2,187 nucleotides of DNA, taken from Enterobacteria phage P2-EC30. The stretch lies in sequence record AJ512676.1. One strand, 5' to 3'. Below the pieces are notes generated by a model that was given only the letters and a program-made list of their open reading frames with translations, was not told the origin of the DNA and did not search any database. Made by a program: the position numbers and the translations under genes. Of the stretch, positions 31-1,975 are shown one piece after another (the first letter of the stretch is position 1; each line of letters starts with the position of its first letter).

Positions 31-92
31 GTTGTATGAGCTCTGGTGGGAGCTTACATATCTATGGCACAGAGTAAAGCCTAATTTGACAG

Positions 93-120
93 TCCGCTCT
101 GTGCCAGAGGCGGACGTTTT
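93..120 (+). terminator. Candidate weak rho-independent terminator or hairpin downstream of the tail fibre assembly gene
   Basis: TCCGCTCTG (93-101) can pair with CAGAGGCGGA (105-114) with one bulge and a 3-nt loop, followed by ACGTTTT (114-120). An alternative 9-bp stem GGCACAGAG (66-74) / CTCTGTGCC (97-105) with a 22-nt loop overlaps it. The T-tract is short, so this is weak. Confidence 0.3.
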
Positions 121-171
121 GGGTATATTAACCTTACACTTCATGGATACTATTCAACATCTCTTTTAAAT

Positions 172-226
172 TATTGTAAAATCCGACGCATTCATTGATT
201 TACGGAAACTTGGCGTATTGTAAAAT
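172..226. repeat. Two exact copies of the 11-mer TATTGTAAAAT (172-182 and 216-226), 44 bp apart start to start, in the AT-rich region upstream of the cargo gene
   Basis: Direct reading of the sequence; both copies are identical on the + strand. Each contains a -10-like TAAAAT hexamer. Function unknown: could be tandem promoter elements or regulator-binding sites. Confidence 0.6.
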
Positions 227-312
227 TGAACATCAAGATTTACACTATGAAGGTTAGGATAGTTTGTTAAAAGCATAATGCATGAGGCCTGAATCAGTTT
301 ATTAAAGAAGTT

Positions 313-343
313 TTGTATGAATTAAGTGGGCTAAAAATATAAT
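313..343 (+). promoter_or_regulatory. Candidate sigma70-type promoter for the cargo gene: -35 TTGTAT (313-318), -10 TATAAT (338-343)
   Basis: Perfect consensus -10 hexamer TATAAT at 338-343. The -35-like TTGTAT at 313-318 has a 19-bp spacer, longer than optimal. It lies about 70 bp upstream of the preferred start codon at 412. Sequence-only prediction in AT-rich DNA, where such matches arise easily. Confidence 0.35.
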
Positions 344-411
344 TTTGAAGTATTTATGACTACATGATTCATATTCAATTATTTGAGTTAAATATTTTTC
401 ATGGAGAAATT

Positions 412-1779
412 ATGGACGTTAGAATATTCTCATTAGAATCTCAGAAGAGTAAAATTTATGATAGAAGAACTAGAAAATATTTTGAAGAGGTTTATAAGAG
501 CTATGCTAATGGTTGTTACCGTTCTGCTACCGTGATGCTATGGTCAGTAGTTGTATGTGATATTATTTTTAAGCTCCAAGAACTGCGAGATGTTCATAAC
601 GATGCTGTTGCGGAAAAGATATTATTAGAAATTGAAGCACTACAAAACGATGATCCTTACTCTCCTAAATGGGAAAAAGAGCTTATTAAAAGAGTTTTTG
701 AAAGAACTCAATTATTAGACACTGCTTCAAACCATAAAGTTTTACTTATTCAAAAACACAGGCATTTATCTGCCCATCCAGTAATAAGTGACGAAGATAC
801 GTTATTCGAGCCAACACAGGAAATGATTAGAAGTGACATTAGGAATAGTATAGAAGTAATATTAAGCAAGCCGCCATTTATGTCTCAAAAAATACTTTCC
901 ACATTTGTTGCAGATCTAGAAAAGGTAAAGGACCTATTCCCTTCCGATAACGCGCTAAAAAAATACTTAGATGTTAAATATTTCAAATCTTTAAACAAGG
1001 AAGTATTAGTTAAGATATTCAAGGGGTTGTGGAAGTTTTCGTTTAGATCTGAAGAAGCTAAGCCATTAGAAAATAGAGAGATAAATATCAGAGCTATGAA
1101 ACTGATATTTGAAAAAGACAGGCAAGCCATGGTGGACTCGGTTAAAGCAGAAACTGCTTATTACTCCAATATTTCCAATAACCATGATGCAATTAAGGCA
1201 CTAATTGAGTTCATTTCCATGGAGAAAGAAATATATAACGCCTTGGATGATTCAGTAAAAGAACTCATAAAGCCTATTATAAAAGATAACATATCTTATT
1301 TTGGAATAGCCTTTTTTATATCTGAATCGCCGGAGGAACACATTAATCGCGTAACAAAAAGAATATCTGAAAAATATTACAAAAAATACGGGGATAATGG
1401 GAATTTTCTCAACCAGCAACATTTGGCAATTTTTAAAAATGTTTGCAGCGAATTAGGTTTGGAATCAGAGTATCGCGATTTTGGAATTGCTTGTTTTATA
1501 AACAGCGCTGATTTCGAACGAGCCGATATATATTTTGATAGATTTATTGACAAAGACTTGGCTAATTACTCAAGCGAGCAAATGTTAACCCTGCTTGAAG
1601 GAGCAAACAAAAACAATCAATGTTATTGGCGAAATCGCTCTAGAAACGGTAACGATTCAATAAGAATATTAAAAGCAGCAAAAAATAAACTTCCCGATGG
1701 TTTTGATTTTTCTAAGTATGATAATCTTCCTGTAGATAAGATAGATCATGTTTTAGAAGAGGATGTTGGAGAAAGATAA
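412..1779 (+). CDS. Hypothetical protein, about 455 aa; possible HEPN-family (R-x4-H) RNase-like N-terminal domain with a large uncharacterised C-terminal region; candidate phage-borne defence or abortive-infection cargo gene
   Basis: Uninterrupted ORF in the supplied track (364-1779). I prefer the in-frame ATG at 412 because GGAG at 403-406 sits 5 nt upstream, whereas the ATG at 364 has no Shine-Dalgarno at a usable distance. Tandem stops TAA TAG at 1777-1782. AT-rich codon usage throughout, unlike the flanking genes. RHLSAH (nt 760-777) fits the HEPN R-x4-6-H motif and sits about 120 residues from the N-terminus, where HEPN domains usually place it. No Walker A, no obvious transmembrane segment and no signal peptide seen. 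The domain assignment rests on motif and position only, with no profile search. Confidence 0.85.
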
Positions 1780-1815
1780 TAGTTAAAGTTAACTAACAAA
1801 ATATGATTCAAATTC

Positions 1816-1847
1816 AATCTAGGTATCATTAGCCAGATACCTAGATT
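1816..1847 (+). terminator. Perfect 12-bp inverted repeat AATCTAGGTATC-N8-GATACCTAGATT; candidate terminator for the cargo gene or a protein-binding palindrome
   Basis: Arms at 1816-1827 and 1836-1847 are exact reverse complements, with an 8-nt loop ATTAGCCA. Begins 37 nt after the cargo stop codon. Followed by the T-rich but interrupted stretch TAAACTTTAAATTTCTGTTTCTATT, so terminator function is plausible but not classic. Confidence 0.4.
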
Positions 1848-1975
1848 TAAACTTTAAATTTCTGTTTCTATTATATGTAGGCGTAACGAATAATCATCCT
1901 TAAGAAATACCTTCTAGTCTCAGAACATAATAAGACCGAGACTTCGCTTCTCGCTCAAAGCAGACTGTCAGATTT

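Follow-up and report, generated by a model that had tools for sequence, protein, structure and literature searches.

A conserved 3' palindrome of the DARNA defense cassette in the G/FI slot of a P2-like prophage, probably a weak terminator or transcript-end stabilizer

The 2,187-nt stretch of DNA analyzed here (the window) carries a perfect palindrome at 1816-1847, shortly after the stop codon of the anti-phage defense gene DARNA. With moderate confidence we read this palindrome as the cassette-borne transcript-end hairpin of a DARNA moron, where it would serve as a weak intrinsic terminator and/or a 3'-end stabilizer. The first-pass annotation had offered three explanations, namely that it terminates the cargo transcript, that a dimeric protein binds there, and that it is left over from the recombination site by which the cargo was exchanged. 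Among these the cargo terminator was the best supported, by position, sense orientation, fixed arms with a variable loop, and the T-run, although what held up was a weak, non-canonical form of it that a terminator scan did not call. We infer that the hairpin acts at the RNA level, by termination or by stabilization.

The window corresponds to the G/FI ("Z/fun") hotspot in a P2-like prophage. Its backbone ends are the 3' end of gene G (1-30, + strand; P2-type tail fiber assembly protein), which was kept in all P2-like loci with any cargo, and the start of gene FI (2158-2187, + strand; P2-type tail sheath), which was present in all P2-like matches; both are annotated in an identical E. coli prophage (L003). 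In P2-like phages, the fun locus was described as a second defense hotspot (Vassallo et al., PMC9519451), and the alternative cargoes found in the G/FI slot include Shedu, SIR2, HNH, SMEK, DUF6615, NUDIX/HAD and others. The GC content is 0.32 over ~120-1930 versus 0.48 in the flanks. The cargo gene (412-1779, + strand) encodes a 455-aa HEPN tRNA anticodon nuclease of anti-phage defense. Its ORF gave a full-length PADLOC match to PD-T7-3 (E = 3.5e-168), and PDB 9wxf, one of the entries named 'Dandelion', covered residues 1-455 of the protein (E = 0). PD-T7-3 was recently renamed DARNA in a preprint, so that the same protein carries three names, PD-T7-3, DARNA (preprint) and 'Dandelion' (PDB). 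The CDS was set at 412-1779 because the numbering of R117-x4-H122, F6, N33 and R98 fits the DARNA preprint when counted from the ATG at 412 and RefSeq has the same start. Pfam provided no model for the cargo protein, the sole match being a sub-threshold DUF6559, and no HEPN model matched. The conserved 3' end of the CDS reads GAAGAGGATNNTGGNGAAAGATA.

The AT-rich, cassette-specific region upstream of the gene (120-411, + strand) presumably contains the cargo promoter and RBS and travels with the gene in all contexts. The DARNA preprint reports defense from a plasmid with the 'native promoter'; DARNA is active from its native promoter when cloned and is therefore taken as an autonomous transcription unit. 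Promoter-like hexamers were found by a scan at 154-182 and 199-226. A direct repeat, ATTGTAAAAT, occurs twice in the same region (173-182 and 217-226) with an extended -10-like TGnTAAAAT, and the two copies are candidate DARNA promoters. Conserved non-coding runs upstream of the cargo, relative to the related locus L009, were seen at 376-394, 259-271 and 190-200.

Direct reading showed that the palindrome consists of a left arm, AATCTAGGTATC (1816-1827, + strand), an 8-nt loop or spacer, ATTAGCCA (1828-1835, + strand), and a right arm, GATACCTAGATT (1836-1847, + strand), which is the exact reverse complement of the left arm, giving a 12-8-12 geometry. TAA at 1777-1779 closes the cargo ORF, and an in-frame TAG comes next (1780-1782), so that the stops are in tandem. 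Counted from the last base of the first stop, the palindrome begins 37 nt further on, with 36 nt in between, and the arm length, spacer and distance reported earlier were thus confirmed. A repeat search extended the arms to 15 nt with one mismatch (1813-1827 / 1836-1850). No other perfect inverted repeat in the window with a 3-20 nt loop is as long, and even with up to 2 mismatches allowed the arm 12-mer turned up at these two places only. When the whole window was shuffled with dinucleotides preserved, an inverted repeat of at least 12 bp was reached in 5/1000 shuffles, which bears out the earlier view that the repeat is unlikely by chance. A small palindrome, TAGTTAA-AG-TTAACTA, was also observed at the cargo stop (1777-1795); L009 and L012 retain only part of it (TAGTTAAAGATAACTA), and it probably has no significance.

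The folding of the region was then calculated on both strands. As RNA, the hairpin alone reached -15.7 kcal/mol, and as single-stranded DNA -9.5 kcal/mol. Within the 100 nt that follow the stop, the best local fold had z = -5.65, with 0/200 shuffles as good, and the hairpin was present in both the MFE and the centroid structures of 1780-1880. The minus-strand fold of 1780-1880 was at least as stable as that of the plus strand (-25.6 kcal/mol, z = -4.5). The G+C content of the palindrome is 33%, its stem has 4 G-C pairs of 12, and the three basal pairs are A-U, A-U and U-A. It is flanked by A-rich sequence upstream and T-rich sequence downstream, and the T-rich tail at 1846-1871 (+ strand) reads TTTAAACTTTAAATTTCTGTTTCTAT. 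The T-tract after the palindrome is interrupted (TTTAAACTTTAAATTTCTGTTTCT), as the first-pass annotation had remarked: in RNA it is UUU and then AAAC, with 4 T in the first 8 positions (TTTAAACT). In the sister lineages, 5 T/8 follow the stem if a 10-bp stem is assumed. An Rfam cmscan of the whole window, with E up to 1, gave no match.

The conservation of the palindrome was determined by comparison with two diverged DARNA sub-lineages, which show 82-86% nucleotide and 91% amino-acid identity. One lies beside an integrase and a GT4 glycosyltransferase (L009; Salmonella L064), and the other in a YbcO/DUF1367...LprI lambdoid region (L012, L065-67). Between the window and L009 both arms are identical at 12/12 positions each (24/24), and the same arms are kept 12/12 in L012/L065. 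The rest of the alignment with L009 is clearly less conserved: 87% in the CDS (71% at third codon positions), 71% in the upstream non-coding DNA, 83% in the 36 nt between stop and palindrome, and 56% in the 97 nt after the palindrome. Given 70% identity in other non-coding DNA, 24/24 arms have P about 2e-4, and given 63% in the rest of the 3' region, P about 2e-5. The arms are therefore constrained in sequence, which is not the case for the loop, with 5/8 positions identical in L009 and one base lost (8 to 7 nt; GCTAGCA in the sister lineages). L012/L065 has the same arms and a 7-nt loop, has lost 7 nt immediately upstream and differs in its distal tail; the palindrome starts at +37 from the stop in L009 and at +30 in L012/L065 after this deletion. 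Of the T-rich tail, the lineages have just the proximal TTT(T) in common; it stands directly after the 10-bp stem in all three sub-lineages. On these alignments, the simplest reading is purifying selection on the arms, with loop and distal tail free. A recent conversion tract is disfavored, because it would have homogenized the loop too. No compensatory or G-U change was found in the 24 stem positions across two to three close sub-lineages, effectively two independent ones, and RNA pairing is for this reason inseparable from constraint on the DNA sequence.

We also examined where the palindrome occurs. It was found in five contexts: the P2 G/FI slot (L003, L011), Rac-like lambdoid prophages, an IS2-containing island, the integrase + GT4 island, and the YbcO/DUF1367 region. 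The arm 12-mer was present in 8/62 fetched loci, all of them DARNA cassettes of this lineage. In 5426 complete E. coli genomes, the 187-nt 3' region and the 42-nt palindrome were present in 15, once each and only with DARNA, indicating that the palindrome travels with its cargo. At 99.7% identity, window 92-1966 is also found in Rac-like lambdoid prophages (L002, L005, L010), where it sits between DUF977 and the hokD/DUF1367 region, and in the IS2 island (L004). The unit that is 99.7% identical includes the promoter region, the 3' hairpin and the inner halves of the bracket elements described below, and such identity across prophage types implies a very recent transfer. Several lambdoid copies of the cassette are interrupted by, or adjacent to, IS3/IS1 (H3, H6, H7, H11; L002). 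No intI-type gene was found in any cassette context examined.

The more distant DARNA homologues do not have the palindrome. In these (L006-L008, L023-L033, L035-L037), nucleotide similarity ends at about window 1759-1781 and the 3' flanks are unalignable, and in most of the other lineages (L006/L033, L007/L023, L027, L029, L031) no statistically unusual hairpin was detected after the stop. One unrelated lineage (L025) has a hairpin with a 10-bp stem and an 8-nt loop at +29 after the stop (z = -5.65), which the terminator scan called on both strands. This hairpin shares GTATC...GATAC with the window; the untranslated regions do not align, and it is treated here as analogous, not homologous. 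In L037 the right bracket element (GTCTGCTGTTCGCTCTTAGCGGTC) comes directly after the final stop of the DARNA homologue. Because most other lineages are without an unusual hairpin and L037 has a boundary element directly after the CDS, the palindrome hairpin is not required by the DARNA family. Two irregular homologues were noted as well. The 69%-identical homologue at L037 ~1397-1677 / L036 2667-2972 has an internal stop, and the gene called there encodes 388 aa; DARNA similarity runs past this stop to window ~1683, and the frame has a long acidic C-terminal extension. The homologue of Aeromonas sp. MdU4 (L008, 3001-4363) is frameshifted or truncated, with a stop after 255 codons (P0054 being the 255-aa product), and is probably a pseudogene.

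The cargo-exchange junctions were located by comparison with 11 P2-like loci carrying other cargo (Shedu, SIR2, HNH, SMEK, DUF6615, NUDIX/HAD, P2-type, Wphi orf44, EC67 ORF1 and others). The backbone common to these loci and the window comprises 1 to ~103-121 and 1945-2187 only. Between contexts and cargoes, homology breaks at 33/65/91-121 and at 1945-1977, and never at 1816-1847. Since both the backbone homology and the GC shift end outside it, the palindrome is part of the cargo-specific DNA and lies 98 bp from the right junction. All 11 P2-like loci and 3 lambdoid loci with other cargo were without it, at their cargo boundaries too. The first-pass annotation had expected it at such boundaries if it marked a recombination hotspot, and because of this absence the reading as a recombination remnant or hotspot motif was rejected.

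The left junction between cargo and backbone carries a hairpin element of its own (92-115, + strand), GTCCGCTCTGTGCCAGAGGCGGAC followed by GTTTT. It has the form GTCCGC-TYTGTGCCAGAG-GCGGAC (+GTTTT), of the type GTCCGC-N12-GCGGAC, and was found at the left cargo edge in P2-like, lambdoid, island and L009 contexts. It probably also terminates the upstream G transcript; the post-G hairpin had a tail score of 2.02. The right boundary element (~1942-1965, + strand) is a degenerate copy of GTCYGC-N6-TCGCTCAAAGCRGAC. In the repeat search 83-112 paired with 1945-1974 as a long-range inverted repeat, and the 'left/right inverted repeat' annotation of GenBank AJ512685 corresponds to the two boundary elements. 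Copies of the bracket were seen in L002/L005/L060 (4001-4024), L060 (6217-6240), L009 (2692-2715 and 4526-4549) and L004 (4002-4025). The same pair flanks cargo both in the P2 G/FI slot and behind DUF977 in Rac-like lambdoid prophages. L060 has different cargo in its DUF977 slot, again enclosed by this left and right pair; in L061/L062 (QueH), the cargo junction falls within the loop of the left element. The ~55 nt outside the left element are roughly 65-70% similar between the P2-like and lambdoid types. The shared bracket probably supplies the homology by which defense cassettes move between unrelated prophages.

Against the features of an intrinsic terminator, the palindrome gave a mixed result. 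It forms a stable stem-loop, typically of 5-14 bp with a loop of 3-8 nt in terminators, and it lies downstream of the stop in sense orientation on the + strand. Its stem is not G+C-rich, least of all at the base. For the U-tract, where 5 T or more out of the 8 nt next to the stem on its 3' side was the criterion, the window has 4 T/8 and the sister lineages reach 5/8 with a 10-bp stem. A consensus terminator scan passed over the hairpin in the window and in L009, and called it in L012 on the antisense strand only; the label 'canonical terminator' was accordingly rejected. Tail scores were obtained with a re-implementation of d'Aubenton-Carafa/Kingsford and are meaningful as relative values only. 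Sense scores were 2.69 (window), 2.93 (L009) and 3.34 (L012), versus 2.17, 2.18 and 2.60 for antisense, and the sense scores thus fall between the post-G hairpin and a backbone terminator (3.87). The d'Aubenton-Carafa d-score was discarded as uncalibrated, being negative even for a canonical control. The backbone terminator, canonical and GC-rich, lies just upstream of FI (2034-2064, + strand; AGGCGGGCAGATTGCCCGCCT + TTTCTTTATC), ~190 nt downstream of the palindrome. It was called by the scan, reached -16.9 kcal/mol with 7 G-C pairs of 9, a 3-nt loop and 6 T/8, and was kept in all P2-like loci, those with other cargo included. Whatever the cargo, this terminator would shield the late tail operon from + strand transcription of it.

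Based on these results, the cassette may be regarded as a self-contained mobile prophage 'moron' with its own promoter, one ORF and its own 3' stem-loop. RNA started at the cassette promoter would fold, ~37 nt past the stop, into a 12-bp stem with an 8-nt loop, followed by UUU and a U-rich stretch. Such a hairpin could act as a weak AT-rich terminator and/or as a block to 3'-5' exonucleases, and in this way would define and stabilize the end of the DARNA mRNA and limit read-through into downstream genes. In the P2 setting, what lies downstream is the late tail operon (FI), which is silent, and the strong backbone terminator (2034-2054) would serve as a backup. The hairpin would then be partly redundant in P2, and useful to a cassette that lands in many contexts.

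We also considered that the palindrome has no function of its own and is hitch-hiking AT-rich DNA in a young lineage, kept perfect by chance or by template switching (quasi-palindrome correction). Only two to three close sub-lineages carry it and other DARNA lineages do not, ~0.5% of shuffled windows give such a repeat and this one was picked post hoc, and the 9-bp core with a 4-12 nt loop also occurs in 21 unrelated viral contigs, all of which fits this idea. However, 24/24 conserved arm positions stand against a background of 56-70% on both sides (P about 2e-5 to 2e-4) with a changed loop, its placement after the stop persists across five contexts, and template-switch correction keeps complementarity, not the ancestral sequence. 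We consider this explanation unlikely.

The palindrome might otherwise be a duplex-DNA site for a dimeric or two-subunit protein, either operator-like or a tyrosine recombinase core site. The arms, identical at 24/24 positions without compensatory substitutions, are what sequence-specific recognition predicts; fixed arms with a variable spacer are known from recombinase core sites, the 12-8-12 layout resembles loxP/FRT (13-8-13) and dif (11-6-11), and an integrase lies 2.4 kb upstream in L009 and L064. On the other hand, the palindrome is single-copy per genome without a partner site, one copy per cassette at neither cassette end, and homology breaks at 33-121 and 1945-1977 instead of 1816-1847. 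The cassette encodes DARNA only, with no DNA-binding regulator or recombinase, and no recombinase is adjacent in the P2, Rac-like or YbcO contexts. A position downstream of a gene is unusual for an operator, and a change of spacer from 8 to 7 nt is poorly tolerated by most fixed-geometry binders. Because loop sequence and length vary, the hairpin is favored over a dimer site of fixed spacing. The earlier proposal of a dimeric-protein site fits the sequence conservation of the arms and is disfavored by the shift in spacing, the DARNA-only cassette and the single copy; we regard it as improbable.

The probability is similarly low that the palindrome is a bidirectional insulator, mainly stopping antisense transcription that would enter the cassette from downstream genes in some contexts and interfere with DARNA expression, with sense termination secondary. 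The stability of the minus-strand fold (-25.6 kcal/mol, z = -4.5) and the switch from an A-rich flank before the hairpin to a T-rich one after it, as seen at bidirectional terminators, agree with this possibility, as do the antisense call in L012, the calls on both strands for the analogous L025 hairpin, and the convergent gene (DUF1971) downstream in L005. Against it, each of the three sub-lineages has a lower tail score in antisense than in sense, and the extended minus-strand pairing is not kept, owing to the 7-nt flank deletion of L012. No minus-strand promoter-like site was found at 1850-2187, and no leftward transcription from FI is known in the P2 context.

Finally, the arms could be conserved for their sequence as a DARNA-private protein-recognition element, either a loxP-like core for mobilizing all or part of the cassette or a hairpin, in mRNA or in transient ssDNA, bound by DARNA, itself a nucleic-acid-sensing HEPN protein, for autoregulation or self-tolerance; it is because no compensatory substitutions were seen that this retains any probability, and we rate it very low.

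As a putative terminator or stabilizer, the hairpin adds an unremarkable new case to a known kind; cargo, hotspot and flanking inverted repeats had all been described before. The palindrome alone matters little: it is another case of a horizontally acquired prophage gene arriving with a 3' stem-loop of its own. The hairpin at 1816-1847 is the only strongly constrained element of the DARNA 3' region, and for cloning of DARNA/PD-T7-3 "with native regulatory sequences" the conserved unit includes it, about 70 nt beyond the stop. The shared bracket is more interesting: in the P2 G/FI hotspot, the true junctions of cargo exchange are conserved hairpin elements used also by Rac-like lambdoid prophages, which probably explains how the same defense cassette can be found at 99.7% identity in unrelated prophage types.

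Several known classes of site were compared with the palindrome. REP/BIME elements are multi-copy, GC-rich and imperfect, and were rejected for a palindrome that is single-copy, present in 15/5426 E. coli genomes and 33% GC. The HipB-type operator is TATCC-N8-GGATA; it was rejected on spacing, TATC-N8-GATA in the palindrome versus TATC-N10-GATA. A relaxed core, CTAGGTATC-N4-12-GATACCTAG, had 22 matches in viral contigs, roughly the chance number, all unrelated except the cassette itself. Like integron attC, the palindrome sits just 3' of a cassette ORF; attC was rejected, the palindrome being perfect, without extrahelical bases and without GTTRRRY/RYYYAAC boxes in or beside the arms. FRT has a 13-8-13 and dif an 11-6-11 geometry; in sites of this kind the arms stay fixed for protein binding, and lineages may differ in the central spacer. 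The palindrome resembles loxP, FRT and dif in its two inverted ~12 bp arms around a 7-8 bp spacer, and it falls within the 11-13 bp arms and 6-8 bp spacer of tyrosine-recombinase cores (12-8-12 in the window; 12-7-12 in L009 and L012); for loxP, a passage of PMC6379469 quotes 13-8-13. Unlike recombinase core sites, it has no partner, cassette recombinase or homology breakpoint, and a tyrosine-recombinase core site was rejected for want of a partner site or paired ends (one copy per genome or cassette) and of a breakpoint at the palindrome.

Inverted repeats flanking the P2 Z/fun hotspot were reportedly described by Nilsson, Karlsson and Haggard-Ljungquist in 2004 (Mol Biol Evol 21:1; cited in PMC6379469). 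The palindrome shares its locus with the Z/fun repeats annotated for the P2-EC67 Z-region (AJ512685), and the window has both of these (~33-115 and 1945-1977+), with the cargo between them. The palindrome differs from them as a cargo-private sequence inside the variable segment, with no similarity to the repeats. Morons (Hendrix/Juhala) are extra genes with their own promoter and factor-independent terminator between conserved phage genes. Here, the insert has a deviant base composition and lies between genes whose interval is otherwise filled in relatives. Unlike typical morons, its 3' hairpin is AT-rich with an interrupted U-tract, and is at best a weak terminator by prediction; like them, the insert is a single AT-rich ORF, between G and FI, with a native promoter as reported from the plasmid and its own stem-loop. 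The closest comparison within the window is the canonical terminator at 2034-2054, from which the palindrome differs in G-C pairs (4/12 versus 7/9), loop (8 versus 3 nt), T/8 (4 versus 6) and tail score (2.7 versus 3.9), and with which it shares a sense stem-loop after a stop, T residues directly after the stem, and a folding energy of -15.7 versus -16.9 kcal/mol.
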